DNA of 61,938 nucleotides, the filler included, from Collodictyon triciliatum (taxonomy: Eukaryota): the NCBI GenBank assembly GCA_043381765.1. It is 6 parts of 6 records of this genome, joined end to end, with 100 filler letters (N's around TTAATTAATTAA, not from the genome) between each part and the next. Parts side by side here need not be neighbours in the genome. Positions count along the whole stretch, not along the records: positions 44,534 to 55,564 come from JBHJMP010002501.1; 5 more parts are not named here. One strand, 5' to 3'. A program made the translations under genes and the position numbers. The first letter of the stretch is position 1. Each line of letters begins with the position of its first letter. Under the pieces are notes generated by a model. It saw nothing but the letters and a program-made list of their open reading frames with translations, made no database searches and was not told the DNA's origin. This document shows positions 11,039 through 61,343 of the stretch, piece by piece.

Positions 11039-11138
11039 NNNNNNNNNNNNNNNNNNNNNNNNNNNNNNNNNNNNNNNNNNNNTTAATTAATTAANNNNNN
11101 NNNNNNNNNNNNNNNNNNNNNNNNNNNNNNNNNNNNNN
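11039..11138. other. artificial contig spacer
   Basis: N44-TTAATTAATTAA-N44, with stops in all six frames. Confidence 0.99.
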
Positions 11139-12120
11139 CAAAGACTGAAGAACCAAAGACTGAAGAACCAAAGGCTGAAGAACCACAGACCGAAGAACCA
11201 CAGACTGAAGAGCCAAAGGCTGAAGAACCAAAGACCGAAGAACCAAAGTATGATGATGCATTCGAAAGCGACGAACCCAAGGCTGAAGAACCACATACTG
11301 AAGAACCAAAGGCTGAAGAACCAAAAGCTGAAGAACCAAAGACTGAAGAGCCACAGACTGAAGAGCCACAGACTGAAGAGCCAAAGGCTGAAGAACCACA
11401 GACTGAAGAACCACAGACTGAAGAGCCAAAGGCTGAAGAACCAAAGACTGAAGAACCACAGACTGAAGAACCACAGACTGAAGAACCACAGACTGAAGAA
11501 CCACAGACTGAAGAACCACAGACTGAAGAACCAAAGACCGAAGAACCAAAGTATGATGATGCATTCGAAAGCGACGAACCCAAGGCTGAAGAACCACATA
11601 CTGAAGAACCACATACTGAAGAACCAAAGGCTGAAGAGCCAAAGACTGAAGAACCCAAGACTGAAGAACCCAAGACTGAAGAACCCAAGACTGAAGAACC
11701 CAAGACTGAAGAACCAAAGACTGAAGAGCCAAAGACTGAAGAACCACAGACTGAAGAGCCAAAGACTGAAGAGCCAAAGGCTGAAGAACCAAAGGCCGAA
11801 GAACCAAAGGCTGAAGAACCAAAGTATGATGATGCATTCGAAAGCGACGAACCCAATGCTGAAGAACCACATACTGAAGAACCAAAGGCTGAAGAACCAA
11901 AGGCTGAAGAACCAAAGACGGATGAACCAAAGACCGAAGAACCACAGACTGAAGAACCACAGACTGAAGAACCAAAGACTGAAGAACCAAAGGCTGAAGA
12001 ACCAAAGGCTGAAGAACCAAAGGCCGAAGAACCAAAGGCCGAAGAACCAAAGACTGATGAACCAAAGACTGATGAACCAAAGACTGATGAACCAAAGACT
12101 GAAGAACCAAAGACTGAAAC
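11139..12120 (+). repeat. coding 15-nt tandem repeat (GAAGAACCAAAGACT-like) with a recurring KYDDAFESDEP spacer
   Basis: Visible tandem array. The spacer recurs at ~11249, ~11552 and ~11825. Confidence 0.95.
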
Positions 12121-12799
12121 CCCTAAGGCTGAGGAAAAAGAATCTGAAGAATCAAAGGCCGAGGTTAAACGTGCTGTTAGATTTGGGGAAGAAGAGGAAA
12201 AAGAAGCTTCGTCAAATTCTAAAGAAAGTGCAATGCAAGAGAGCCAACCAATCCAAGACGAGGAAGAAGATGAAGGGACAAAACAGAAGAAAATCGAGCA
12301 GAAAATTAAGGCTGAAAATCCTCCAAACCAAGAGCCGAAATCTTTGGAATTCCAGAGAAGTCTTTATTCTGTATTGGATGATTCTATGAGGCGAAAACTT
12401 GGATTACCACCGGTTGAGGACGACGGAAGTACGACCGAATCACACACCGCTGAGAATTACGAGGCCCCGACAGAGAAAAAAGATGACACTGACGACTCCG
12501 CCGCCTGGACTGCTTGGGTTTCGCCTGACGACAGGGAGCACATCAATTCCAGGATACTAGACGGAATTGTAACTCTGCAAACGGTTTCTGATTTGGCTGA
12601 GATATTCACGTCCATTTCCACTGTCGACCCACGGAGTCTCTCAATATCGAAGGATTCTGTCTATGAATACTTGACCAAGTTGGAACTCCTTGACCCCGAA
12701 AACGAGATGAGAAAACTACTTTCTCTCCGAACTAATGACAAAGAGTCTTATTCTCTGAAAGACTTTGTTGATGCGTTCATCGCGGGGCAGACTTCATAG
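11141..12799 (+). CDS. 5'-truncated acidic (EEPK/QT/A)n repeat protein with a possible degenerate C-terminal EF-hand-like pair
   Basis: The frame is open from the contig edge (AAG ACT GAA GAA CCA...) and continuous with ORF 12233..12799. The C-terminus LAEIFTSISTVDPRSLSISKDSVYEYL...EMRKLLSLRTNDKESYSLKDFVDAF has helix-loop-helix spacing. Confidence 0.7.
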   Translation, partial: KTEEPKTEEPKAEEPQTEEPQTEEPKAEEPKTEEPKYDDAFESDEPKAEEPHTEEPKAEEPKAEEPKTEEPQTEEPQTEEPKAEEPQTEEPQTEEPKAEEPKTEEPQTEEPQTEEPQTEEPQTEEPQTEEPKTEEPKYDDAFESDEPKAEEPHTEEPHTEEPKAEEPKTEEPKTEEPKTEEPKTEEPKTEEPKTEEPKTEEPQTEEPKTEEPKAEEPKAEEPKAEEPKYDDAFESDEPNAEEPHTEEPKAEEPKAEEPKTDEPKTEEPQTEEPQTEEPKTEEPKAEEPKAEEPKAEEPKAEEPKTDEPKTDEPKTDEPKTEEPKTETPKAEEKESEESKAEVKRAVRFGEEEEKEASSNSKESAMQESQPIQDEEEDEGTKQKKIEQKIKAENPPNQEPKSLEFQRSLYSVLDDSMRRKLGLPPVEDDGSTTESHTAENYEAPTEKKDDTDDSAAWTAWVSPDDREHINSRILDGIVTLQTVSDLAEIFTSISTVDPRSLSISKDSVYEYLTKLELLDPENEMRKLLSLRTNDKESYSLKDFVDAFIAGQTS

Positions 12800-22171: not shown

Positions 22172-22271
22172 NNNNNNNNNNNNNNNNNNNNNNNNNNNNN
22201 NNNNNNNNNNNNNNNTTAATTAATTAANNNNNNNNNNNNNNNNNNNNNNNNNNNNNNNNNNNNNNNNNNNN
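22172..22271. other. artificial contig spacer
   Basis: N44-TTAATTAATTAA-N44. Confidence 0.99.
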
Positions 22272-22491: not shown

Positions 22492-25400
22492 CTACTTATT
22501 TCTTTTCATATGATATATTTTCCCCTCTCCTTTCGCATCTACATTTATACGTACGCGTTCATGTGGTGTGCGGCTCCGACTGCTCGCAGAGTAATTCAAC
22601 GCATGAGAGAAGGGAGCTCTTTGTGGAGTCATTGTCCCTTGTTGCCGGTACATCGACGGATTAAGCTTGAGGGCCACATACCCTCTGTCTGTTTCTGTTG
22701 GAGTCGCGCTTCGTCCACGGTAGTAGCTATTGTGCCTGTCCAAGGAGCGCGGTTCATGGTGCTCGTGAACTGGGGTTCTGAGTGGATCGGGCTTTGTTTG
22801 GAGTGGCGGGTGGGGCGGCTGGTAAATGATAGCCTTTGAATCCTGCCGGTAGTGGGGGACAGATAAAGTTGTTTCTGCCGTGTTGGGATGAATGGGAATA
22901 AGGCGGGTGGGCGGGGTGAGTTCAGGATGCTGATGGCGTGGGTTGGACGGAGTCAGCTCGGCATCCTGTTTGGCGTGTGATTGTGCCTGGTATAGCGGCT
23001 TGGGGATGTTTGCAGGTTCAATGGCACAGGGGTCATTCTGGTCGGATTCAGTGCGCGATGACGTGAAGACAGAGGTTGGATGTGGGCGCAGGTGAGACTC
23101 TGTCATGTGTTTCTCGCGTCGACTGAACTTTAGCTGATTGTGTGCGATCATCTTGGAGGGTGACTTTGTAAGAATGATGGACTCATTAACAGGCTGCAAT
23201 AGTTGCTGTTGAAGGCGGTCTTTGTTCCCTTCCGACTGGGATGAATCTTTCGTGTCGTGGGGCGTGGTTGACAGAGGGAGGTTACCTTGCTGGTTGGTTG
23301 TGTCACTCGCGTACGGTTCGGTAGGTGTAACAACAGTCGGAACTATGTTTATCCTGAGCTGGCGAGTCCCTGGGTGACCCGTGAGAATGTACTGATTTTT
23401 CTTGCTGGCAGTTTCGGCGAGAGCAACATCTTGATGCAATCGCCCAGCATTAGAGTCTCCAGAGACCGCGGGGTTCTCAAATCCTTGTAGAGCCGTCTGC
23501 AGCTGTTGCTGCTCCACTGCACTATCAGCGCTCGAGTCAGCGGATATGGCAGACAAGCCGTCTTCGACTCCAATCTGGCCATGCCTGGGGTGGGCGGGGA
23601 GATTGTGATGAGGCGGATCTACGACAGAAACATGGACTGGCACGGATTCGGTATGACTCGGTGATATTGTAGAGATGGAATAGTCCTGTGACGCAGCTAT
23701 TGGTGTAGGGAATAGATTGAGGTATGCATGAGGGCCCGTTGCTTGAGCACCAGCTCCGCCGATGGTTGCAGAATGCAAGTGGCTGGGGCTGATAGGTGCC
23801 TGGGCCTGGGCCAGACCCCGAGGTGATGCTTGAGTATGTGAATATGTGTGGGTCTCGGAGTACTGATGAGGCGGATAGATTATTGAGGGGTGGTGATATT
23901 GGATTGGACTTCCTAGAGCCTCCTGGACTGCGATGCTGACGGGCGGACGCAGAGCCAGATGTGTAGGCTGTGAGTTATATTGCAGAGGCTGAGGTATGGG
24001 CGGGTGGTAGAATGCCTGATGTGTAATCTGTTGCTGCGGTTGCACAACAGGGATAGATGGATATAGAGAGCCTGTATAAACAGTGCTTGGTGTTGAGGGA
24101 GCGTTCGCTGGGACTATGGCCGAAGATGCTCCTCTGGATTTAGGAGTGAAGAAAGGAGCCACGGCATAAGTTGTTGTCTGAGGACCACTTATAATATTGC
24201 GGTACTCTACCTCCTCTTGTTTTGAAACGAGGAGTTCTTGAAATGGGATTGGCCTATGGCTTACCATTCGCAGCATCTTTCTCGATTCTTCCTTTTCCAC
24301 GCCACACACAAACCACCGGTGTCTAGCTACTTGAGGCAGTTTGATACGATTATCAACATCTACTTGAAAAAATCCGTCGATCAGGGAGAGAATGGCGGGT
24401 GTTGTGTTGGACATGGTGCTATACTTTCCGGAGAGAATAGACTCTGTCAGGATTTCTGGTGTTTCGTCGGGAAAAGGGAATGTACCATCAAGGATAGTAT
24501 ATAAGATAACACCCAACGCCCAAACGTCTGCAGGCCTCCCATAATAAGGCTCGCCGAGTAATATTTCTGGTGCTGCATAGTTCAGTGAGCCGCAGTAGTT
24601 GGATAGTTTTGTCTCAGACAGGTATGAATGACTTAATCCAAAGTCTGCTAGTTTAATTTGCAAATCTGAGGTAATCAAAATATTATCAAGCTTCAAGTCG
24701 CGATGCACAACATGATTAGTGTGACAGTATTGAACGGCATAGACAATTTGCCGAAAAATCTGCTGTGCTATGTCCGCGCGGCATCCGTTCTATACAGTAT
24801 GATTATTATCGTTGTTATTATTAAGATATATTATAATGGGTTTCATAAAAAGAAAAAGAAAAAGAAAAAGAAAAAGAAAAAGAAAAAGAAAAAGAAAAAG
24901 AAATAGAAAAAGAAAAAGAAAAGGGGAATTCTATTTGAACCACCATGGGATATTAAAATCCACGAATTAAAAAAAAAATTGCGAAAAATTAAATATGGTT
25001 TGTAATAACTCCAGTAATTCTCATTTTGCGTTTCTTGATTTGAAATTGATGATTAAATACTAGTGCTTTCTTCTGAAGAAATTCTAGCAAGTCCCCGCCA
25101 TTTGCATACTCAAGAACAAAGAATATATACTTCTTGTGCTCCAGTCGTTCAATAAACTGCACAATATTTGGATGTTGCATATTTTGCAGAACACGACATT
25201 CCTACATGTCATGTCTGTTAGTTTATTACTAATGTAAGGACTGATACTAATACTATTACTAATGCTGATTCTGATTCTGATACTGATACTAATGGTATTA
25301 TTACAACTATTACAGTTATCATTAGCTAGAGATGTACCTGTTCCATTTGCACTTCGACCTCTGCATCTACATCTGCTCGTTTGTATATTTTGACGGCTGC

Positions 25401-33303: not shown

Positions 33304-33403
33304 NNNNNNNNNNNNNNNNNNNNNNNNNNNNNNNNNNNNNNNNNNNNTTAATTAATTAANNNNNNNNNNNNNNNNNNNNNNNNNNNNNNNNNNNNNNNNN
33401 NNN
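33304..33403. other. artificial contig spacer
   Basis: N44-TTAATTAATTAA-N44. Confidence 0.99.
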
Positions 33404-40110: not shown

Positions 40111-40619
40111 ATATGAGTGTGATGAATGGTATGTGTTTGTGCGGAAAGAATGCGCCTGAAGATCGGACTCGAGAGAGGCTCTGTGCCAAAGGGAGGGATT
40201 TAACGCTGGCACGCAGGGCGCAGAAAGGTAGTGGCCGGTGTGGTAAGAGGAAGGGCGAGAGTGTGCCACTGAATGAGCGTGAACGGAAAGACGACATCAC
40301 ACTACAGCAATCGTTCTCAATATAATAATATAATATATTCAGTGATATCTGGTTACTTGATTGCATGGTTATTGATAAAATATGCACATAATTTGCTAAT
40401 AAATTTTATATTCCAGATTGACAAGTGGTCTACACGTTTGTTTTTTTCGAGCAGACAATAAAATCAAAACGAAAAAGCAATTAAGCTGAAAAAGAAAGCG
40501 AGTGGAAAAATAACTACTGAGACATGAGGCTGGATGCCTGCCACCCAACAGTAATTGATGCGCTTCCACACGACAGGTTCCCCACAGAAACCAAGGAAGC
40601 AACCCAGTTCTTGACGCCC

Positions 40620-44306
<3,687 letters not shown>

Positions 44307-44433
44307 GTGGTGCTTCTTTTTCTTTTTCTTTCTTTTTCTTTTTCTTTCTTTCTTTTTCTTTCTTTTTCTTTCTTTTTCTTTCTTTTTCTTTCTTTTTCTT
44401 TCTTTTTCTTTCTTTTTCTTTCTTTTTCTTTCT

Positions 44434-44533
44434 NNNNNNNNNNNNNNNNNNNNNNNNNNNNNNNNNNNNNNNNNNNNTTAATTAATTAANNNNNNNNNNN
44501 NNNNNNNNNNNNNNNNNNNNNNNNNNNNNNNNN
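44434..44533. other. artificial contig spacer
   Basis: N44-TTAATTAATTAA-N44. Confidence 0.99.
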
Positions 44534-44534
44534 T

Positions 44535-47500
44535 CAGTCTCAGTCTCAATCCCAATCCCAATCCCAATCCCAATCCCAATCCCAATCCCAATCCCAATCC
44601 CAATCCCAATCCCAATCCCAATCCCAATCCCAACCTAACTTACAATCCCAATCTCAACCTCATTTACAATCTCCATCACAGTCCTTGTCTGAATCTTATT
44701 CAAACTCCCTTTTTGAAGGTCAATCAGAAGGTCTCGCTCAATCTCAATCTCAGTCACAACCACAATCTAAATCCCAAACCCAACCTAAATCTCGATCTCG
44801 ATCTCAATCTCAATCTCAATCTCAATCCCAACCCCAACCCCAATCCCAACCGAAATCAAAATCAAAATCAAAATCAAAATCAAAATCAAAATCAAAATCA
44901 AAATCAAAATCGCAGCATCAATCTAAATCTGCGCCCGAAAATGAATCCAGAAGTAAGTCGCCGTTGCTGCAGAGCAAAACTCGAACTCGTTACAGCCATT
45001 CCGTATCATATACAAATTCATTCCCTGCCCTGACAGAGACAAAAAGTTCGTCTGTGTCCAACACCAGAATTCCTAGACAGACAAACACAATCACACCAGT
45101 ATCTCTGAGCCCAAAGTATGAATCGCCCACCATAGCCTCTTCATCCGACTGTGACAAAGGATACTCGCGGAATCAATGCGGGGTGTGTCAAAGAAATGGC
45201 ATTCCAATTGAGATTCAAAGTACATCTTTTGAGCCCTCTAAAATTCTTACGATATCTGACGATTTGTTCTCTTTTAACAAAACCACATTTGCCTCAGCTC
45301 GAGGGTTAACAGCTCATGAAGTTATGATTAGCGCTGGGTCTTTCTCGCAGAAAATCAGAGTGAATTGTTCCCCGCCAGATATCGCATCATCTGTTTTTGG
45401 TTTCTCAAACACAAGAAATTTGACTTTTACTGATACAAAACTAAAATTTTACCTATATGCCAAGACATCTACTGGGTCCAATGTTGTATCCCCTGTGAAT
45501 ATTTCTGTTCGCATTGAGAATTACGAAGAAATCAACGGATTCTGCACCTACAAGGGGGATTCTCCATGCGAGGTCAATCTAGGTCTAAGTCAAGTAATTT
45601 TTCAGAGAGGAGAGCAGTTTTTGAGACCGATTATCAGTTCTGATTTAATTCAGAAGAGTATTCCCCTAATTTCAATCACATACCGTCAAAATATTGCGAC
45701 AGCAAACCAAAACGGAGCCATTTTTGTTTTGTCTCCATTTTCATCCGATACCTCCCAAAAGTACACAATTCCTGTCTACATATTCACCAACAAGCGAAAG
45801 CTTAGTATTCTACAGCTTGAGATCAATCTGAGTTTTATTCCTTCCATTGAAGTAGAAACAACGGATGGATATATGCAGACTACATCAAGTAGAGACGGAA
45901 AAATTGTTATCACTGTTTTGAGTAACTCCAAATCATCTGATTTCAGTATTAAATCACCTGTTATCTTGATAACAGTCCGACTTGATAGCAACACTATAGG
46001 AAAAAGCACTATAATATCATCCATCGTCATATCTGAAATGAAAGATATGAACCAGTCTCCGATAGTTGCATCCGATACCCTGGCAAACATCTTACAAGAT
46101 GGAAAAGTTTCAAAGTCTGCCAAACTAGTATTCCCGTCTGATGATGTATTTGGAGAATTTTTGTTCTCTGATGTATACGACATATTCAACACATATAAGT
46201 TGAATGGGAAAAATGTTAGTCTACCTATTAAAGTCTACCAGTACAGAAAAATCTCTGGCAAGAACCAAGTGAATACTCACTTGTTTGATATCATTAAAAT
46301 CAGTCAAGGAAATGGTTTCGTATCCAATTCAAGCGTGGAAATCGGTGCAAACTCAAATAGAGGAATCTTAAAGATAGAAACGATCGATTCCACAGATTCT
46401 ACAACATTCAATATTTGGAATCCCAGTGCACCCATATCTATTACTGCAAACAATAACAAACTGTCGAAAATATGGATTAATGCATCGTCAACATGCGATA
46501 ATATCTATCAATCATCCCAAATCTATGCAGATGCAACCTTTTCTGATTTGTCTGGCTCATTTAGTGCTGACGTAAGCGCATTGGTGTCTTACACTGTTGA
46601 AGGAAACGCTGCCACCGTCCAGAACGGTACTATTAATGGAGAAAATGCCGGATTTGTAACCATAAGTTCCTCCTTTATAGACTCCAATGATTTGGTGATT
46701 GCAGTGAAAGACACTCCAATCTACATTGATTATATGTCTGTATCTGCTATATTCAACATTTCCTACACGAGTATACCTCAATCAAATGGAAATATTATGA
46801 GTTCATTTGAGTTTGCAATAGCACCTCGCATATTGGGGTATGGTTCTGAAGCTGTGTTAGTTCCCACAGTAAAATTCACAGATGGCTCGTACATCCAAGG
46901 ATTTCTCTCTGATTTAATGACCTATTCTGTTTCAAACCCATTTATTAACTACAACCCTAGTTTTCCGGATACAATCAGAGTAGCGAGAAGCATTTGTGAC
47001 TGGTCCACCAGAGCAACTTTGACAATATGCAGCAAATCCATTCAAACATCGAACGTCGTAGTTGCCTCCACTGTGTCCAACATTCAAAACCTGAATATCA
47101 CTGCCACGAGTTCTAGTCTTGCTCGGTCTAAAAATCTTGCCAATATACTAGGAGTTCCGTCGAAGATTTATTTAAATATTATAGCTAGCTTCGATGACGG
47201 CTCGGAGGTCGACTTTACATCAAACACGTTTCTTCGCTGGGATGATGAATCAGGAGACCCAGATGACCTTATCGCGATAGGGACGAATATATTTGCCAAC
47301 GGAACAAGGTCCTTGTTTATATACGCCGATGGGTTTGGGTATGGAAATGCCACAGTGTACTTTTGGGTTTACTCACACCGTTCTCCGAGAAAGTTCAAAT
47401 TCGACATCAAAGTTATATCATTCACGTCAATGAAGATAAAGATGTCTGCCTTCCCAGAGTACCAAGGGTCCATGGATATCGAAAAGAATGCAATATCCCA

Positions 47501-50500
47501 AATTGGATGCAGCTCGCAATATCAACAGTTGATATCTCGACTTTTCGTGTATTTATCTGACGGGACGATTTATGACGTAAGCTATCATGAGTTGACTTCT
47601 ATAAGTGTAAGCAGACGATTTTATGCAATTGCATCCATGTCTGAAAACATAGTCCGGGCTACTGGAATAAGTAATGGCACTGCATTTGCTATTGCCAGAT
47701 TTGCAAACTCTCCAGTTGTTTCTCAAAAGTTTACAGTCACTAAAGATAGGCTATCTATTTCAAATTTTGATGCTCTCGTTCCAGCTCTTTATTCTGATGT
47801 ATATGAGTCTGTGCATCAGATTAAATATAACATCACATTCGAAGACGGGTCCATAGTAACAGAATTGAATCCCAGAAACGGGCTAGTTATATTCTCTGCA
47901 CCTGCTAACTCATCCATTTTAATCACATCGGGGGGGCTTGTAACTCTGATATCAAACTCTGATACTCAGATTCCCATTACGTTAACTACATGCACAGGAG
48001 ACTCAAAAACCTACTACACAACAGTGAGTCTCACTGCTAGATCTGGTGATGTTGATCTCCTCGTGGCAGACGGGAAAGACCCCAAAGGGGTAACTTTGTA
48101 TGAGAATATTTCCATATACTTATCTACCAATAGCAATACACCTATTGGAAGTTTCCACTATCTATTCTCCTACACTCCTGAGGTTTTGAAGGTGGTCAAT
48201 TGCCAAACGGGTGCTGATTGGGCAGGAGGTGTATTAGAATGCAATATAAACAACCCACCGGGTGTGGTAAAAATCGTCGGTGTCATATATCCTGGACTGC
48301 ATATGAAAGGGGATGTGGTCAGAGTAGGAAAAATAACTTTTCAAGTAAAATCTGGCGGGCTATGTGCTTTCGGTGGTGTGGTGGAGAATATGATACAAAA
48401 CAATATCGACCAAAATCCCATTCCGAACGGGAATAACGGGACATCTTCATATCCGCAAACTTTTCAATCAGGGGCATTGAGCATAACTGTGGCATCATCC
48501 GAAACGGACGAAAATACATTTGATAATTCGAGAACTTTGATGCGCCAGCTATTCAAATCCGAGCCCACATTGGAATCAAAAATCACTCAAAGAAATTCTG
48601 AACCAATTAACACATTCAATTTAACTAGACTATACGAACTCGAGGACCTTCAAACATTGGTGCGCATTTTCACCAATAATGAAATCAAATACACACTACC
48701 CTTATCAATGAACAATGGTGATTTGGACAGGAATGGGAAATCCCAATTCATAGATGTACTGTATGGGACAAGGGTATACCTCGGTAAGTTGGCTGATGTG
48801 AGATTCAGTGCGATTGCTTCCACCCAATCGAACCCATCCTTTCAGCTATCTGTCAACACAACAGACATATATGGATTTGTTTATTCATCCCCAGTCAAAA
48901 TAACCTATTATATCATGGTCGAACCAAGTTTTTCTATGATAATTACGAAAGGGAAAAATAGGGTTCAATATCCGACTTATACGGCTGTCGAAGCTATCGA
49001 CACCGGGAATGGAGTACATTTTGTCGAAGGTTTAATGGGAATGGTCCGAGAAAATATCGGAGTATCATTCTCACAAGTCACATACGACGAGTTTGGTCTC
49101 CCTCAACAAGATCGAATGTATACATACTACTTAAATGGTGCAATAATGGAACCCGTAGCATACATGAACGCATCCTTCAACGGCACTTTACCTCCATCCA
49201 TGGTATCAGCACATTACGAAAAAAACTCTGAATTTATCACAGTTACATTCGATAAGAATACAGACAGAGGGAAGTTTACGAGCGTATTTCCATGCAACAG
49301 TCTATTCTCTGGAGATCACGATATTAATTGCGAATGGATATCTGATTCACAGGTCATACTGCGCACATCCTGTTCAAAAAAATACAAAATTGGATCATTC
49401 TTGCATCTTAAGGAAAATACCTTGTCTCAAAAGGGATCCACTACAACCAGCATAAAAAGTACAGGCCTCATCGACATATCTATTGGAGAATCAAATATGT
49501 TTGTATCCACCTCTTTGGGTGGTCCATCCAGGGTTGGCTCTTGCTCAACAATCAATATCGATACAAGTTCATCCATCCTAGTTTTGGGCAATACTTGCAA
49601 GGAAATAGATTACTCATGGAGCTTTACATCATCCCCCTCCCTCCCATCCAAAAGCAGGGATGAGGTGAATTCGATGCTAGCTAATGCAAAGTCGTCGCTC
49701 ACCCTAAGCGGATCAATCCCAGCTAGCGTCTCCTACATTGTATCTCTTAAGATGGAAACTGTTCTGGGAATATCAAGCACGGCTTCTATAACCGTTTTCA
49801 AATCATCTGTTTCCCTTCCAGAAGTGACCATCAGTGGTCCAGCTATCAACCGAGTTTATGCAAATTCAGTTATTAAATTCGATGGATTGGTAGCTTCCAG
49901 TTCTTGTATCCAAGGGTCAAATGCAACTTATTTGTGGGAGCAAACAATAGGCCCCTCTTTAAATATGAGTACTGAATCATCGAATAGAAGGACTCTTATC
50001 ATTCCTCCATTTAAATTACTGCCAGGGAACTTGTATGGTTTCAAACTCAGAGGATGCATTATAGATAAAACAAATAGGCTGTTATGTAACCAACAATCTG
50101 TATGGGCAGACGTTCAGACTTTGGGTATAGATGCAATAATCAAAGGAGGCAGTTATGCGATAGTAGGTACTGTCAAACCATTCAGTGTCGATGCTTCCTC
50201 TTCCAAGCTGTTAGATGTCGAAATTCAAGTACCAGGAGACCTCATATTTACTTGGGAATGCATAGATATAATTTCCAACTTGACTTGCGCGGATGCATAT
50301 AGTGAGCCCTTTATTTTTGACGATACTCCAATAATCACATTCAACCAGACATCACAACCGTCATTACCTCCAGGGCATTACAAATTCTCTGTAGTAATTG
50401 AATCTCAGAGTACGCCATCAGCTGGGACCTCTGTTGCGGTAAAATACATTCAAGTATTGGAAGGGGATCCACCCATAGCAGAGATTATTGCTCCCTCTGT

Positions 50501-53350
50501 TTCGAATTTTAATTACGAATCGCCCTTGTTCTTACAGTCAAGAGTATCAGTTCCAGGCAATCATACATATAATGTAACATGGAGCTTAGCACAAGGGGCC
50601 TCGTCATTAAGTGCCCTGGGCGTATCTGCATCTGCCATAAACCAGGATACTCTTCTGATACCCGGAAACGGAATGAGCCCTGGTGGTAGATATGTCGTGC
50701 AGCTGAATGTCGTAGACGAAATTACCATGTTACAAGGAGTTGCCACGCTTACGATTCAGAACAAATTTCCCCCGTACGGAGGAAGTTGGGATATCAAAAA
50801 GTCACCTGATGGCTCTATTTATACATACGACATCACTATATCAGATTGGGCTACATCAATTGCTTCATATCCGTTGTTTTATGCGATAGGCTTGGTATCA
50901 ACCAGCGACGAAGTAGTCATTTTATCATCTTATTCGAAGACCACAAAAAGATCTGTAATTGTATCAGGCCTGCCTGCAAAGATTAGTGGAGGAAATAAAC
51001 CGACAGTTGAATTGGTCCTGTATGTTTTAGACTCTACAGGGTCACTGGTGTCAATCACCGGTACAGCCAATTATTATCCTTTGAATTTTGAAACCGAGGA
51101 AAGCGCTGTTTCGTTTGTGCAGAATAACGTGAATAACGCCATGCGAGAGGCATACGAGTCAGGACACATGGATTTATTGGTACAAATTGGCCTTCAATCG
51201 ATTTCCGTGATTAACTCGTTCAATCCTCCAGTATTCTCTGGGACTCTCACACCTTTCCAATACCAGACCGTCAACCTTACAGAGGCAATTTTCAATTACA
51301 TGTTGTTGGCTAACCCAATATCTGCCATATCTTCGACGTCACAAGCCAGTAACTATATAGCACTGGTATCATTGCTGGTTCAAAACCCATGCATGACGAA
51401 TTCTATGGCAGATAAAACAATATCTGAGGTCAAAAAGGTATCTGGTGAGTTATTTACTTATTCACATACAGGTTTTGTTATTTTTGTTTCTTTTCAGTTA
51501 TTTATCTTGGATTTTTTTTGTTTGTTTTCGTTTTCCTTTGTTTTCATTCAGTTGAAAATTAATTTGTTTATGCCATGTCCTAGATATGTTGTTGGGCAAG
51601 GGATTTGTTGTTAGTCCTTCATCCAGTGGCCTGCTTATAGGGATCTATTCATTTGTGGGCTCATTCTACGAAGCTACTGATCAGCAAGATAAAATAACTC
51701 TTCTCTCTGAAGTCCAGCGAGAGGCTACGAAGGCGATTGCAAAGTTGTCCCTTAATCTCCCTTGGAACACCAACTTTGTGTATTCCTTGGCATCTACTAG
51801 TATCCAAATGGCTGCAAGAAGAGTCCTTCAATCCGGAAGTCAGTTTGGCTTGGAAGTTCCAAGTGACCCAGCCACTGCGATTTCAATACCTCTTGAATCT
51901 CTGGAGCATCTGAAGGATACCGTGGTTTTTGGCTCGACTGCAAGGCTCGGACCAGCTAACAGCATGTACAACTTGGTGGTGGATTCCGCCTACCTAACTA
52001 TTGAGGCTGAAAGATTGCCATCGTACTCTGCAGTTGTCGTCCAGAATCTTACCTCCAATTTAGTAGTTCGTTTGCCTCGGTACACCTCTCTGCCTGGTGG
52101 TCGAAATGTTGCACCGATATGCATGGTATATATCAAGGCTTCAGCCTCGTGGTCTTCACTATATTGTAGCATGACAAACTTCACCGACTCTGATGCCGTG
52201 TGTGAATGCAGTCGGTTTGGGACCATATCCACGTTTATTATCGCACCTACACACAGTGTGTCCAACAGACCCTCTAGGACGCAGTCGGCATCACGCAACA
52301 ATGGAAACCAAAACATCGATGAGAGCGACTATGATTTTGTATCGCTTGTAATCGGTGTTGTATTTGGTACTTTCGGTGGGGTTATGATTTGTGGAGGATG
52401 CTGTGTATTCCTCGTTGCCAGACGGCGCCGCAATCGTGTAGAACGGAAAGAAGAGGACCACTCAGTCATGTATGTTTTCCCCTTATTTTTCTTCATAAAT
52501 ATATCATATTACATGCTCTTCAAACATGACAACCTAAAGAAAGGGTTTAATAGAGCGAATTGAAACATTATCTCCATTTCTATTTGTCTTTTTTTTTTAA
52601 TTCGCCCTTTATCCGATTCAGAATGTTCTCTTCGCCGTGTAAAATAAAGAGAGAATATGCTACTTATGTCTTAGGCACTCACCACACCACACACACAGAC
52701 GCCACGAAGCACCCAAGGTCCAGTCGTCATCCAGCGCAATAGCGGTCGCAATGGGGCCGATGGGCTCGCCCTTGCCAAAGACTGCGGGACATGCCAGCAG
52801 AGCCCACATGGCCGCTCCGTTTGAGAACCAAACCCCAGCAGAGATGATTCCGAATGCCGTTATGTTTGCTGCCGAGCCAGAGAAGCACGCACTGCCACCC
52901 GACCGACTGAAAAACTACATCGTCCCGAACTTGGGCGGCGATAGCCGCGCAGAGTCCCAGCCACCGGTCGCAGGCGAGGGCCAACACATCCGAAGTGAGG
53001 CGCATCTCGACCAGCACGACGCTCAGCAAACTCAGAGCGAAGCGCATCACGTCCAAAGTGAAGGCCATCACACAAGCCACTCGCTCCCGCCGAAGCAGCT
53101 GGGCAGTCTGGGCGAGCGCCACCAAAGCAGCTCCCTTCTGTCGCACCATAGAGTCCCCACACTCCCGCCGCTTCACGCAGGCTCTCACGCAGCCCATCTA
53201 CCGGAGCTTCACAAGGGACACGGAAGCGTGATTCTGCCTCCTCTGCACTTGCCACAACCACCGGATGCCACTCACAACCACAACCCTAACATTAACCACA
53301 GCCACAACCAAAACCACGCCAACCATGATTCTTCAAGCACACCCCAATAG
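44535..53350 (+). CDS. giant single-pass cell-surface protein: SQ/SK low-complexity region, TMEM132-like cohesin/Ig region, cohesin-like + dockerin-like modules, REJ/PKD module, GPS-like motif, TM helix and His/Pro-rich tail; 5'-truncated
   Basis: The frame is open from the contig edge to the donor GTGAGT at ~51446. It joins in phase to exon ~51584-52469 (ORF 51586) and then exon ~52675-53350 (ORF 52751). Motifs: YQSSQIYADATF...ADVSALV and YQQLISRL...DGTIYDVS (TMEM132-type Ig repeats); GDVDL...IGSFHYLFSYTPEVLKVVNC...CNINNPPGVVKIVG (cohesin-like); GDLDRNGKSQFIDVLY (dockerin-like); YLWEQTIGP...LIIPPFKLLPGNLYGFKL...IIKGG...VDASSS...FTWEC...PPYGG (REJ); C...WSSLYC...CEC (GPS); LVIGVVFGTFGGVMICGGCCVFLVARRRR (TM + stop-transfer). 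Confidence 0.8.
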
Positions 53351-53798
53351 CCCCGTGCAGGTATGTCCTGATGAATCCCATGCAGCTCATCAAAATGGTC
53401 AAAGTACTCGACACTCATTTTGTTTCTTGCCTCAGCATAGGTCGCTCTTCCCTCCTTTTCTTTTCCTTTTTTATTATTAACATGGAGTGGAACGCTTTGG
53501 ACCAAGATTCCCTGCCTCGGGAAAGCGATATGGACTCTGGGAGGGAAATGAGGACAAGTGCCTGTCTGTTCGACCCTCATCAACCCCTAAGCTCTCTTTT
53601 TGTAATCACCAACACGCCATCCCATTGACATCCATTCCTTTTCGTTTTCGTTTTCCTTTTTCTTTTTCCTTTTCCTCCAGACACACGCCAAAACTCTGGA
53701 GCATATGCAAAAACGCCAACAAGAATAAACAAAGCAGAAGAAGAAAAAACATCCAACAAATCATTATTGCATGCGAAATCTTCTCAAGGGGCGTGCCT

Positions 53799-55343
53799 TT
53801 ACACATGCGAATGGCGCACCATGCGGAAGGGGTCCATGGCCAGGAGCGGGAGGACACACAACCCCAGGGCCTGGAGGACATAGATGGGGAGGAAGAGGAC
53901 GTAGTGGGAATGCGCCTGGGACTCGTCGGACTGGAGGCGCCAATGGAGCAGCGCAAGGAAGACAGAGCCTGCAAAGAGAGGGAGGAATGCCGAGAGCATG
54001 GCCGCGATGGTGCGCAGACACGCGCGGTCATCGAGATGGTGGTCGTAGCACACGCAGAATCCGCCCCAGGCGGCAGGCCACATCCCGTGGTCGATGAGGC
54101 AGGCCCAGGCGATTCCCAGCAGCTGCATCGCGCTCGCGTAGTGCCACACGAGAAATGCCTGACCGTAGTCGCTGCTGTCCGGCGCGTGGTTGCCGCCCCG
54201 CCGGTCGAGGACGCGGCCGAGGGCGCCTGCAAAGCCGACAAGCGTCGCAATCGTGAGGAGCTGCACCGCCAGTTCCAGCAGCAGGAAAAGGTGGCCTTCG
54301 AGCAGGTCCTTTGCGCTGCGCTTCCTGGCCGGCTCTGCCCTGCCCGGGCGCCTCTGGTGGGACGCGCGGAGATGCCGCGTGGTGCTGGGCGACTTTGCAA
54401 CCTGCGCGCGGCCATGCAGCAGATCCGACGCGGCCTCATCCAGCGCGCGCCTCACTTGCGCCTGTGCGTGCCGCGCCCACACGGGGACCAGCGCGAGGCC
54501 CAGCAGCAGCAGGAGAGGCATCCACCCGTAGAACACGCCTTCGTCCTCGTCTGCTTTGACCGCCCCCAGCACAGACAGTACAAAGACCGCCCCCGCCACG
54601 CACAGCTCCGGCCATACGGTCGATGCTGTTTCCTTTCCCCTCATGAGGATTCCCCCGACAACCGCAATCGCAAGGAAAAGGGGGATGGCCACCACCACGT
54701 AGTCCGCCTCCGCGAGCTTGCCGTCCAGCTTGGCCGGCAGGAGCAGCGTGAACACAAGCAGCGGACTCTGGACAAAAGCCACAAGGAGTGCCGTCCGTGC
54801 GTTGGATGCGCTTTGCGTGCTGTCGGCCCCAGACTGATTCTTTGCTGCAGGCGCAAACGGCGTTGAGCTTTGTGCGGCCTGGTCGGAAAAGGGTCTTGTT
54901 GCGTCCTTTGGTAGGAGTGATGGTGATGGTGATGGTGATGGTGATGGTGATGGTGATGGTGGCTGTGATGGCAACCATTCATGGCTGGGTGTGAATCCCT
55001 TGGACATGTGCTTCTCCGTCTCTGTCGATAGACGCTCGGAAAGCAGCGGCCTGGAAAGGGACGCTTTTTCTCTCAATGCATCTGCAGCGTATGCCGCATC
55101 CTCGGACGATGTCTTCCATGTGGGCTGCGACTCATGGTCGTTGGTATCTGCAGCATCCGAGCACAACACAGCACTGATGTGTTTCGGCGAAAGCGACAGT
55201 CTTTGGTTGCGCTCTGGTGGGCCGTTGCCTGCGGGCTCGGCTGTGTTTTCGCTCCCGTTGTGCTGCGCAGTTCCGTCGGAAAGAAAAGGCGATTCGGAGC
55301 CGACACTCGCGCTGTCTTTTGCAGCGTTTGCCCGTTGCGACAT
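53799..55343 (-). CDS. multi-pass membrane protein, paralogue of 37191..39983 (TMEM185-like); true 5' end may lie further upstream
   Basis: FVQSPLLVFTLLLPAKLDGKLAEADY and CYDHHLDDRACLRTI...HSHYVLFLPIYVLQ...DPFR align by eye with FVHIPLMTFSIQLPSKLDGELNDEDY and CFDGQFDDRSYLRTI...HSFYMVFVPIYIIQ...DPFR. Confidence 0.75.
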   Translation of the reverse strand: MSQRANAAKDSASVGSESPFLSDGTAQHNGSENTAEPAGNGPPERNQRLSLSPKHISAVLCSDAADTNDHESQPTWKTSSEDAAYAADALREKASLSRPLLSERLSTETEKHMSKGFTPSHEWLPSQPPSPSPSPSPSPSPSLLPKDATRPFSDQAAQSSTPFAPAAKNQSGADSTQSASNARTALLVAFVQSPLLVFTLLLPAKLDGKLAEADYVVVAIPLFLAIAVVGGILMRGKETASTVWPELCVAGAVFVLSVLGAVKADEDEGVFYGWMPLLLLLGLALVPVWARHAQAQVRRALDEAASDLLHGRAQVAKSPSTTRHLRASHQRRPGRAEPARKRSAKDLLEGHLFLLLELAVQLLTIATLVGFAGALGRVLDRRGGNHAPDSSDYGQAFLVWHYASAMQLLGIAWACLIDHGMWPAAWGGFCVCYDHHLDDRACLRTIAAMLSAFLPLFAGSVFLALLHWRLQSDESQAHSHYVLFLPIYVLQALGLCVLPLLAMDPFRMVRHSHV

Positions 55344-55413
55344 GGTTGTATTGGCCACGTCGCCTGAAACGCTCTCGGGAAGCGGCTGGTGTGGTGCTTG
55401 CCGTGTCTGCTGA

Positions 55414-55483
55414 GTGTATGTGTGTGAATGTGTGTGTGTGTGTGTATGTGTGTGTGTGTATGTGTATGTGTGTTGTGTCTTGT

Positions 55484-55564
<81 letters not shown>
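55414..55564. repeat. (TG)n microsatellite at the contig end
   Basis: Directly visible. Confidence 0.95.
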
Positions 55565-55664
55565 NNNNNNNNNNNNNNNNNNNNNNNNNNNNNNNNNNNN
55601 NNNNNNNNTTAATTAATTAANNNNNNNNNNNNNNNNNNNNNNNNNNNNNNNNNNNNNNNNNNNN
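55565..55664. other. artificial contig spacer
   Basis: N44-TTAATTAATTAA-N44. Confidence 0.99.
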
Positions 55665-59516: not shown

Positions 59517-61343
59517 ATGGCGACTCCAATGGCCCCGAACTATATCGTCCGACCGGACCAGCCTGCTGTTCTTGCCAAGCCTTATCGCATCGAACATAGA
59601 CAGGTAATGGTGTGAATCGCACCCTGCTTCTTTTTGTATAACTGCGATGTGCTTTGAAAAGATAGAGAATAACTGCAATGCCCTGCCCATGTCTATAAAA
59701 AAAATACTTCATCACTACTTTTGTTGAGATCTTCAGCGATCATCTGAATATACATCCGGCATTAGTACCTTACTCCAAAGGAAACTATGCATTTTCTCGG
59801 CGACTTGGGTATCATCAAGGTTTGTTTGATTTCATGTTCACTCCAACTTTATAAATGAGCGGCTCTCTAAATGATTAGCATGTATTTTTATGTCTTTTTT
59901 TATGTCTTTTTTATGTCTTTTTTATGTCTTTTTTATGTCTTTTTTATGTCTTTTTTATGTCTTTTTTATGTCTTTTTTATGTCTTTTTTATGTCTTTTTT
60001 ATGTCTTTTATGTCTTTTATGTCTTTTATGTCTTTTATGTCTTTTTTATGTCTTTTTTATGTCTCGTTCCCTATTAACGAGAACCATGTCATAGTGTCAA
60101 TTCACAGACTAAATCATAATTCCGGCACAGGCAACCTATCCTCTCTCCAAGATGCTCATACTGAGTTTCCAGGCTGGGATGTTCAAGGCTATTGCAGGCT
60201 ATGTCGGGCTCATGATTGCGATGGGGTGTCCTGAGCTGACCAGTGGGAATCCAGGACTGAAGAGATTGTTGTTTGCTCTTGCCTTTCCTGTCGGTCTTAT
60301 ACTCGTTAATGTTTATGGAGCTGAACTTTTCACGGGGTCAGTTATGGTTCTTCCGCCATCTTATCTCGTCGGAAAAATTAAGTTCCGTCATATGCTCAAG
60401 AGCCTGCTCGTTGTGTTTGCCGGAAACTTCTTGGGAGGTCTTTTCGTTGCGTACTTTTTGGGCCATCTCACAGACCTGCCTTCCATCGAGCCATGGAAAA
60501 GCGCAATCGTGAAATTTGCAGAGACCAAGGTACTCATCAAAATATTGATAATAATGATTTGTTGACAGATGGACTCATTTTCGCTATTTTTTTCTTTTTT
60601 CTCTTTTACATCTTATATTTCTTATTTTTCGTTTTCGTTTTGGTGTTAAAAACTATATGCAAATTCAGGCACAAGCGGGATTCCGACAAATAGTGCTTCG
60701 TGGGATTGGATGTAATTTCATGATATGTGTGGGCACATACGGGGCCATGTCTGCGCTTGATATCACCGGAAAAGCAGTTGCACTGTACCTGCCCTCATTC
60801 ACGTTCTCGGCCATCGGCTTTGAACACTCTGTAGCAAACATGTTCCTCATTCCATTGGCCCTGCTGGAAGGTGCAGACATCACTGCCAAGCAATTCCTGG
60901 TGGACTCGATAATCGGGTCGACAATTGGGAATGCCATCGGCGGAGGAATCTTTGTTGGACTGGCTGCCTGGGCTGTCCACGCCGACGTGAATGTACTCAC
61001 TTACAAACTAGGCAAAATGTTTGACAAGAACTACGAACCAGAGGTGGAGAAAGCAGTCCAGATGGAAATGGGCTCCATGAACGAGTCACCCTCGGTAACT
61101 TCAACCCTGCAAAATCCTCACGTACTCGTTGCAGAGCACACAAACTATATGGCCAATGGATACGTTATTCCAAATGCTAATCCATCGATACCCAAGGAAC
61201 CTTCTTCAACCCGTATACCTGCACAAATTACAACTCCTGCAAACCAATGCGCCTCTCGACCAACATCGCGGCACGTTGACCAGTTCGGGCGAGCCTTTAA
61301 TCCATTATTCGCATCCGAAGTGGAGGGCCAGTATATTAATTGA
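59517..61343 (+). CDS. formate/nitrite transporter (FNT) copy C, 4 exons
   Basis: MATPMAPNY...|YLTPKETMHFLGDLGIIK|ATYPLSKM...FPVGLILVNVYGAELFTGS...|RGIGCNFMICVG...GFEHSVANMF...GNAIGG. Its intron positions match those of copy B. Confidence 0.92.
59884..60063. repeat. (TTTTTTATGTC)n minisatellite in an FNT-C intron
   Basis: Directly visible, with units of 9-12 nt. Confidence 0.95.

Follow-up and report, generated by a model that had tools for sequence, protein, structure and literature searches.

A very large predicted surface protein of Collodictyon triciliatum that combines a TMEM132-type cohesin and immunoglobulin region with a single-pass REJ-GPS module

Introduction

The TMEM132 proteins, encoded by human disease genes (hearing loss, panic disorder), are poorly understood. 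Their architecture consists of a conserved region, a cohesin domain, three immunoglobulin (Ig) domains, a transmembrane (TM) segment and tail motifs, and has been dated to early Holozoa, the cohesin and Ig cassette being published as a holozoan invention; the same cassette is found in the premetazoan cadherins known as coherins, lefftyrins and hedglings (PMC6030884). REJ and GPS domains mark other surface proteins. In the accessible part of PMC1934368, sea urchin SpREJ1, 8 and 9 are described as REJ and GPS proteins with one TM segment, and the available portion of PMC4700764 reports REJ and GPS proteins of the brown alga Ectocarpus that are male-gamete-specific and under positive selection. 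Here we describe a gene of the protist Collodictyon triciliatum, located in a 61,938-nucleotide (nt) stretch of DNA (filler included; hereafter the window) from assembly GCA_043381765.1, whose product is predicted to carry both sets of domains in a single-pass protein. A first-pass annotation of the sequence had proposed such a chimaera, and we followed up that proposal.

Results

Gene structure and fusion of the two halves

The gene lies in the fifth of the six pieces, each of about 11.03 kb, that make up the window, where a frame free of stop codons runs from 44490 to 51614 (2,374 codons, the first 45 bases being N). Because GC content is about 40% over such a length, a chance origin of this frame is excluded; only two other open reading frames (ORFs) of at least 100 amino acids (aa), of 183 and 152 aa, occur in the same interval. 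Removal of two GT..AG introns, both of whose junctions preserve the reading frame, gives a spliced product of 8,472 nt, corresponding to 2,823 codons and a TAG stop at 53348-53350 (Table 1). The single spliced frame of more than 2,700 codons and the exon of about 6.9 kb described in the first-pass annotation were thus both recovered, the latter measuring 6,910 nt.

The most informative comparison is with P0004, a EukProt transcriptome protein of 2,743 aa that is collinear with the new protein across 2,298 aa, with 24% identity and a pairwise E of 1e-163. Pfam identifies Ig_TMEM132_4th, Cohesin, PKD-like, REJ (6.9e-50) and GPS (8.8e-11) domains in P0004, followed by one TM segment and a tail. 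The two proteins share a start rich in S, T and Q, a Cys cluster, the Ig_TMEM132_4th and Cohesin domains, a dockerin-like module, the PKD-like unit, REJ, GPS, one TM segment and a cytoplasmic tail. They differ in the cleavage site, which is the canonical H-L-T in P0004, in the dockerin calcium loops, of which P0004 has both, and in the tail, which is acidic and Ser-rich in P0004 and His/Pro-rich in the C. triciliatum protein. The spliced protein aligns with residues 2107-2536 of P0004 as one HMMER domain (E 3.8e-16) that is ungapped at the intron 1 junction and also takes in the GPS motif and the TM helix. Since this homology crosses the junction without a gap, intron 1 is supported; read-through of the intron would meet a stop at 51612-51614.

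Both halves of the protein are encoded in one uninterrupted exon that is collinear with a transcript-derived protein, and the fusion is therefore real rather than an artefact of the gene model. A competing explanation at this level is that the one frame in truth covers two adjacent genes, a pseudogene or simple repeats that were translated, as might be suspected from the microsatellite DNA of the first ~125 codons, the position of the 5' end outside the window, and an exon 3 that differs in GC content and lacks homology support (GC 0.40 in exon 1, 0.60 in exon 3 and 0.66 in the convergent neighbouring gene). However, the stop-free exon of 2,303 codons covers both halves, P0004 has the same architecture and comes from a transcript, and homology is continuous across intron 1, by which such an artefact is largely refuted for exons 1 and 2; for the locus as a whole we consider it extremely improbable. 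Judged from its sequence, the gene is real and very large, and its product is predicted to be a cell-surface protein. As a separate observation, GC and GC at third codon positions (GC3) climb along the gene, from 0.40 and 0.34-0.40 in exon 1 to 0.60 and 0.63 in exon 3, and rise further into the neighbouring gene.

The visible sequence does not begin at the start of the gene. Position 44535 is not the gene start; piece 5 (44534-55564) has the frame open from its very first base, and the true N-terminus and signal peptide therefore lie outside the window. The pieces are joined by 100-nt spacers with the same geometry of 44, 12 and 44 letters at five places (11039-11138, 22172-22271, 33304-33403, 44434-44533 and 55565-55664), of which only the one at 44434-44533 was read base by base, with TTAATTAATTAA between its N runs. 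Because the joins are artificial, genes that flank a spacer need not be genomic neighbours. Piece 5 starts with hexanucleotide repeats (44547-44911, beginning with (CAATCC)n) and closes with (GT)76 (55414-55564), while (TTTCTTTTTC)11.5 closes piece 4 (44319-44433), and this coincidence of simple repeats with piece ends suggests that the assembly breaks at microsatellites.

The cohesin and Ig half

The visible N-terminus is a low-complexity region encoded by the microsatellites (CAATCC)18.5, (CTCAAT)18.8 and (AAATCA)9.8, and no Met precedes residue ~268 in the translation. The annotated mucin-like SQ/SK stalk is S/Q/K-rich in composition, as claimed (Table 1), but it lies at the distal N-terminal end, not next to the membrane. 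The CGVC motif is present at aa 215-218 (nt 45177-45188) within a Cys cluster, beyond which a first beta-sandwich domain (aa ~269-379) has no Pfam match.

Distant relatives were collected with an exhaustive HMMER scan of aa 230-1429 at a threshold of E<=1e-3. This returned 91 proteins, each near 23% identity; 42 of them reach E<=1e-10 and 15 reach E<=1e-30. A word-indexed homologue search with aa 230-1560 gave no match. Because the exhaustive search yielded only ~23% identity, the searched collections hold no copy or close relative of the protein. Pfam was run on 82 of the 91 relatives, the nine of more than 5,000 aa being left out, with cutoffs of E<=1e-3 or, for some, E<=1e-2. Cohesin was found in 44 of the 82, Ig_TMEM132_4th in 33, Dicty_CTDC in 12, Dockerin_1 in 11 and Cadherin in five, and REJ and GPS in one each. 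For mapping these domains we used a 48-row alignment whose register was checked against BLASTP; two other alignments, whose query ends were smeared because the alignment to much longer proteins was global, were not used for folding. The matches of the relatives fall on the new protein in one order: cohesin-type (394-515), Ig (541-631, 636-730 and 731-833), cohesin (1186-1285) and dockerin (1357-1415).

Several individual matches anchor this order. Onto aa 394-515 map the Pfam Cohesin domains of P0018, P0027, P0033 and P0059 and the TMEM132_3rd domain of P0026; this first cohesin-like domain has no Pfam match of its own, and its profile self-match with the second cohesin is weak (E 5e-4, probability 31%). 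P0004 passes the Ig_TMEM132_4th cutoff at the aligned position with 38.6 bits, and aa 636-726 correspond to a 5th-Ig match of P0077 that exceeds its cutoff (31.8 bits). The 6th-Ig matches of P0017 and P0034 that map to aa 731-833 are below cutoff, and the new protein has no Pfam match of its own to the 5th and 6th Ig domains (PF23486 and PF23487). At the place of the second cohesin, P0004 has a Cohesin match at E 1.4e-12. In the dockerin-like module a block alignment shows calcium loop 1 to be degenerate and loop 2 to be intact (GDLDRNGKSQFID), and the PDB dockerin match of P0032 is weak (E 0.091). Complex prediction for the second cohesin against the dockerin-like module scored 0.02 (mark 0.34), which is no evidence either way.

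The Ig block is also duplicated internally, aa 521-967 resembling aa 833-1273 (hhalign E 4.8e-10, probability 96.6%). Five units of the form F/L-x-D-G/L-S/T occur at aa 669, 781, 886, 1007 and 1102, spaced by 95-121 residues, the last three marking the further Ig-like units with F-x-D-G-S signatures. These are the repeated Ig-like units of the first-pass annotation; the YQ that it included in them stands 11 residues ahead of two of the five. An AlphaFold2 (AF2) model of aa 230-1429 has a mean predicted local distance difference test (pLDDT) of 74.2, with 779 of its 1,200 residues scoring at least 70, and is all-beta before becoming helical at the dockerin-like part. Its best Foldseek matches are strings of Ig-like domains, among them the nuclear pore protein NUP210 (E 1e-19), the S-layer protein SbsC, a mastigoneme protein, MDGA1, DSCAM and protocadherins, with no TMEM132 structure among the matches listed. 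PDB sequence searches with the REJ region, exon 2 and aa 230-1429 gave nothing useful. Through its relatives rather than directly, the N-terminal half is predicted to carry the cohesin and three-Ig cassette that defines TMEM132 ectodomains.

In other relatives the cassette is partnered with cadherin domains, Dictyostelium-type repeats, EGF, TSP1, NHL, VWA, PDZ and tyrosine phosphatase domains. One of them, P0070 (2,185 aa), adds EGF repeats to the cohesin cassette and carries a tyrosine phosphatase domain at its C-terminus (E 1.4e-77), the make-up of a receptor-type phosphatase; VWA, PDZ, NHL or lamin-tail domains occur in others. The five relatives with cadherin domains (P0026, P0034, P0051, P0054 and P0061) share the order of 4th to 6th Ig, cohesin and dockerin. 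Taken over all relatives, the cassette is predicted to be wider than TMEM132, with extra Ig-like units, a second cohesin, a dockerin-like module and many partners. A phmmer search with the REJ-GPS half against all 91 relatives matched only P0004, so that one of the 91 shares this half. By these profile matches the fusion is kept between two distant proteins and is rare among the relatives. Within the window, tblastn of the protein found no paralogue in the other five pieces.

The presence of Cohesin and Dockerin_1 among the relatives, together with the two cohesin-type domains and the dockerin-like module of the protein itself, would also suit a structural anchor of a cell coat or matrix, in which the beta-sandwich rod would tether secreted cassette-bearing proteins to the membrane through cohesin-dockerin pairing in the manner of a cellulosome scaffold. 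The EGF, TSP1, VWA, cadherin and Dicty_CTDC partners and the S-layer and mastigoneme matches from Foldseek point the same way. However, calcium loop 1 of the dockerin-like module is degenerate and the Cohesin matches of the protein itself stay below threshold, and we regard a coat anchor as unlikely.

The REJ-GPS half, membrane segment and tail

The REJ-like sequence seen in the first-pass annotation is borne out by a direct match to Pfam REJ (PF02010; E 6.6e-33, 114.4 bits, cutoff 25) over aa 1828-2213. Because the ESM Atlas places aa 1430-1790 nearest to REJ clusters (score 0.95, a lead only), the module probably spans ~780 residues. It is followed by a region that begins in exon 1 and continues into exon 2, where a model of mean pLDDT 42 contains three helices (exon-2 residues 13-82) and then about ten strands. 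Although no Foldseek match of this model is significant, the list is led by GAIN domains (CELSR1, BAI3, CD97, GPR110, latrophilin-3 and BAI2; E 0.17-1.1), which stand at ranks 1, 2, 5, 7, 8, 11, 32 and 45; we treat the region as a candidate GAIN domain.

A GPS-like motif with the Cys and Trp residues expected from the first-pass annotation lies at aa 2483-2520. It matches the Pfam-GPS stretch of P0004 by BLASTP (E 2e-5), its four Cys and its Trp are invariant in all four aligned sequences (the new protein, P0004 and two amphioxus polycystin-1-like proteins), and in the top ESM Atlas cluster for this part GPS is found in 100% of members (score 0.89, again a lead only). The cleavage site itself differs: C-E-C-S-R-F-G occupies the place of C-x-C-N-H-L-T in P0004 and the two amphioxus proteins, so that R-F-G stands where autoproteolysis calls for His, an aliphatic residue and Thr, Ser or Cys. 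In the accessible text of PMC3321182, the latrophilin substitutions H836S, L837A and T838G each impair GAIN autoproteolysis, and since R-F-G occupies these same three positions, autoproteolysis of the new protein is predicted to be unlikely.

This bears on the possibility of a cleavage-dependent mechanosensor of the polycystin-1 or adhesion G-protein-coupled receptor (GPCR) type, in which force would strip the N-terminal fragment at the GPS and expose a tethered activating peptide. Such a mechanism would account for an REJ domain next to a GPS with two disulphide-forming Cys pairs and a conserved Trp, and the relative P0004 has the canonical C-S-C-N-H-L-T-S-F. Here, however, the triad is replaced by R-F-G, at positions where each mutation impairs cleavage according to the part of PMC3321182 available, and the protein has no seven-transmembrane (7TM), 11TM or PLAT part on which a tethered agonist could act. 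Because the triad is absent, cleavage-based mechanosensing as in polycystins or adhesion GPCRs is unsupported, and we consider it very unlikely for this protein.

Beyond the GPS motif lies the one TM helix of the first-pass annotation, the only segment in 2,823 aa with a 19-residue Kyte-Doolittle mean of at least 1.6; the RRRRNR that follows fits the positive-inside rule. The tail is His/Pro-rich, as had been noted (13.5% His, 11.4% Pro), and a regular-expression search of it found no WIRS-like or RVxF-like motif. No Pfam domain, PLAT or channel included, was found in exons 2 and 3 at E<=1, and because the convergent neighbouring gene begins 450 nt past the stop there is no room for further exons.

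Comparison with known systems

Through the matches of its relatives, the protein is predicted to resemble animal TMEM132A-E in having a cohesin-like domain ahead of three bacterial-type Ig domains in tandem, the order being the same, and in being a type I protein that crosses the membrane once (PMC6030884). In TMEM132 the TM segment follows closely on the third Ig domain, whereas here ~1,700 residues separate the sixth Ig from the membrane, and these hold the further Ig units, the second cohesin, the dockerin-like module, REJ and the GAIN-like region. In addition, the tail lacks WIRS and RVxF motifs and there is no Pfam match to the TMEM132 N- or C-terminal families. The protein is not a member of the TMEM132 family, although the core of cohesin and three Ig domains is predicted to be common to both. 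As in coherin-type proteins, further modules come after the cassette, but there is no Cadherin match in Pfam, the REJ-GPS module standing in place of cadherin repeats.

With the PKD1 family the protein shares the REJ domain and a GPS-like pattern but it has no PLAT domain, no 11 TM segments and no cleavage triad, and it is not a polycystin-1 orthologue. From adhesion GPCRs it differs in having one TM segment and no 7TM part, in the R-F-G at the cleavage site and in a GAIN domain that is only a model-based candidate; it resembles them in the GPS Cys and Trp residues just ahead of the TM segment and in the succession of helices and strands in the low-confidence model (compared with the accessible part of PMC3321182). 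The expectation in the first-pass annotation that REJ and GPS precede a multi-pass region does not hold throughout, as SpREJ1, 8 and 9 have one TM segment in the available text of PMC1934368, and these sea urchin proteins, with REJ, then GPS, then a single TM, resemble the C-terminal half in layout. It departs from the sea urchin SpREJ/PKD1 family in lacking C-type lectin, EGF and PLAT domains and the cleavage triad, and in an REJ module that is very divergent from animal ones.

That layout raises the possibility of an REJ1-type recognition receptor, with an ectodomain specific for a ligand of a mating partner, gamete or prey and an REJ-GPS part that would set off ion fluxes in a separate partner channel. 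Besides the architecture shared with SpREJ1, 8 and 9, the gamete-specific, positively selected Ectocarpus proteins (as the accessible part of PMC4700764 describes them) would be in keeping with this role, and an identity of only 24% with P0004 fits fast evolution or old paralogy. Yet the lectin and EGF modules of SpREJ1 are absent by Pfam, and no partner channel was seen within the 11-kb piece; an REJ1-type function seems to us improbable.

A search of the open-access literature found no paper that joins TMEM132 with an REJ domain or an REJ domain with a cohesin domain, and hence none that describes both halves together, and among the papers listed for TMEM132 and amoebae, judged by titles and abstract openings, none was about protists. 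The combination of domains is most likely new, while every module is of a known kind and single-pass REJ-GPS proteins are already known (PMC1934368, accessible part). The joining of both architectures in one single-pass protein, as the first-pass annotation had put it, is upheld by their presence in one exon and by the collinearity with P0004.

An adhesion receptor as the preferred reading

We think it probable that the locus encodes a type I single-pass surface glycoprotein whose ectodomain exceeds 2,550 residues and which serves as an adhesion receptor. From the outside in, it would consist of the N-terminus with its signal peptide (beyond the window), the S/Q/K low-complexity region, the Cys cluster and one beta-sandwich; next the cohesin and three-Ig cassette, about three more Ig-like units, the second cohesin and a half-degenerate dockerin-like calcium module; and then the ~780-residue REJ module, a GAIN-like region ending in the GPS, one TM helix and a disordered His/Pro-rich tail of ~240 residues. 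The ligands of the distal cohesin, Ig and dockerin part may be proteins of other cells, of prey or of the matrix, and other members of the same cassette family could be among them; the long beta-sandwich rod would present these binding modules far from the membrane. The REJ-GAIN part would act as an uncleaved, force-bearing juxtamembrane spacer rather than as a self-cleaving switch. Signalling, if any, would pass through the tail or a partner protein; PLAT, 7TM and channel parts are lacking.

A number of points weigh against this reading. The adhesion function is read from the types of domain present. Exon 3 is called from splice signals and an open frame only, and a signal peptide at the true N-terminus is presumed. 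The assignment of the cassette depends on transitive homology at 20-25% identity: the TMEM132-like region proposed earlier stands in so far as the cohesin and Ig matches of the relatives map collinearly, but the protein's own scores are below the Pfam cutoffs, both for Ig_TMEM132_4th (PF16070; 13.9 bits against 27, E 0.054, aa 548-631) and for Cohesin (17.7 bits against 24.1, E 0.0042, aa 1196-1274), and there is no own match to Dockerin. The structure comparison gives a generic Ig-array likeness for aa 230-1429, with Foldseek TM-scores of 0.08-0.14 for the 1,200-aa model, and for the exon-2 model no match at E<=1e-3. In the C-terminal half, the K319L-like PKD unit is below cutoff (E 1.2e-3, 19.2 bits against 27), the REJ region matches an amphioxus polycystin-1-like protein weakly by BLASTP (E 0.021 over 53 aa), and there is no own Pfam GPS match at E<=1.

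Table 1. Features of the gene and the adjoining spacer, with positions in the window
Feature	Position	Strand	Evidence
Spacer (44 N + TTAATTAATTAA + 44 N)	44434..44533	.	read directly; not part of the gene; cuts off its 5' end
Exon 1 (visible part), 6,910 nt, aa 1-2303 and first base of codon 2304	44535..51444	+	stop-free frame; donor G/GTGAGT; collinear with P0004
S/Q/K/T-rich low-complexity region, aa 1-205, 5' end open	44535..45149	+	74% S+Q+K in aa 1-150
Cys cluster C-x8-C-G-V-C, aa 206-218	45150..45188	+	P0004 has C-x8-C-x2-C at the aligned place
First beta-sandwich domain, aa ~269-379	45339..45671	+	AF2 strands at model residues 41-146, pLDDT 50-79
Cohesin-like domain 1, aa 394-515	45714..46079	+	relatives' Pfam matches mapped by alignment
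Three tandem TMEM132-type Ig domains: 4th, aa 541-631; 5th, aa 636-730; 6th, aa 731-833	46155..47033	+	relatives' matches collinear; AF2 all-beta
About three further Ig-like beta-sandwich units, aa 834-1185	47034..48089	+	internal duplication; F-x-D-G-S signatures; pLDDT mostly 80-94
Cohesin domain 2, aa 1186-1285	48090..48389	+	Cohesin matches of 7 relatives fall on this stretch
Dockerin-like EF-hand module, aa 1357-1415	48603..48779	+	Dockerin_1 of P0077 and P0059, PDB match of P0032; AF2 helices
REJ module, aa ~1430-2213 (Pfam core 1828-2213; PKD-like unit 1782-1822 ahead)	48822..51173	+	Pfam REJ
Start of helical region, aa 2214 to ~2386, continuing into exon 2; candidate GAIN subdomain A	51174..51444	+	P0004 alignment; inference
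Intron 1, 139 nt, GT..AG, GC 0.26	51445..51583	+	donor G/GTGAGT at 51444/51445, acceptor CCTAG/AT at 51583/51584
Exon 2, 886 nt	51584..52469	+	splice sites; homology to P0004
GPS-like motif C-x9-W-x4-C-x11-C-E-C-S-R-F-G-T, aa 2483-2520	52120..52233	+	BLASTP to the Pfam-GPS stretch of P0004
Single TM helix, aa 2555-2582 (hydrophobic segment about 2553-2583), then RRRRNR	52336..52419	+	Kyte-Doolittle; aligns with the TM of P0004
Intron 2 (inferred), 205 nt, GT..AG, GC 0.31	52470..52674	+	donor AT/GTATGT at 52469/52470, acceptor CTTAG/G at 52674/52675
Exon 3 (inferred), 225-codon open frame, His/Pro/Ser-rich tail and TAG	52675..53350	+	splice signals and open frame only

Neighbouring genes and other features of the window

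Downstream of the gene, on the minus strand, a convergent GC-rich ORF (53799-55562, GC 0.66) looks like a multi-pass membrane protein and has a near-threshold Pfam match to Tmemb_185A (22.6 bits, cutoff 23.1); its stop codon and that of the giant gene are 450 nt apart. Pfam gave nothing above cutoff for 12 downstream ORFs (53272-55564), a sub-threshold TrAA12-like match being treated as noise.

In piece 4, DEAD-box helicase fragments on the plus strand (40521-44300) are spread over more than 3 kb, from an ORF with the DEAD motif (40521-41567) to the end of Helicase_C (44135-44300). This spread fits many short exons, and the gene runs into the end of the piece; the spread is also the only, and indirect, evidence here for the intron-dense genome of the first-pass annotation.

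A formate/nitrite transporter exon lies at 60558-61343 on the plus strand (Pfam E 1.7e-29), with EukProt transcripts at 74% and 72% and another at 47% as its relatives and bacterial proteins at 34-50% as the next named matches. On the minus strand, a 765-codon ORF (22492-24789) encodes the C-terminal lobe of a protein kinase (E 1.4e-41) and then ~600 residues of low complexity rich in Pro, Gln, His and Ser. Several frames of both strands contain long ORFs at 11087-12799, directly past a spacer, with a weak Extensin-like match (24.5 bits, cutoff 105); the stretch is probably either simple sequence or a Pro-rich repeat.

Discussion

The result is a modest one, in that all parts of the protein are of known kinds and its function is read from its domains. 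What stands out is the distribution of the cassette, which occurs in 91 distant proteins, is accompanied by Dictyostelium-type repeats in 12 of the 82 analysed by Pfam, and has an REJ-GPS-TM partner in two proteins. Because it is found in so many distant proteins and is fused to very different partners, the cassette may be an older, mobile adhesion module, as these sequence comparisons suggest. In addition, the C. triciliatum protein and P0004 form a natural pair, without and with the cleavage triad, on a single-pass scaffold, which would make them a convenient system for studying the role of REJ-GAIN alone.

A more far-reaching proposal, which we put forward tentatively and hold to be unlikely, is that this gene and P0004 are founding members of a protist family of adhesion receptors anchored by REJ-GAIN, in which cohesin and dockerin modules of the cellulosome type, set on a TMEM132-type Ig rod, would link cells to each other, or to other surface proteins that bear the cassette, in a calcium-dependent way. 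In such a family the REJ-GAIN part would bear force as the membrane anchor, open to cleavage in some members (H-L-T in P0004) and locked in others (R-F-G in the C. triciliatum protein). If this is true, the TMEM132 cassette would extend beyond its published holozoan origin, and the juxtamembrane module of polycystins would have been in general use as an anchor for adhesion before channels or 7TM domains were added to it.

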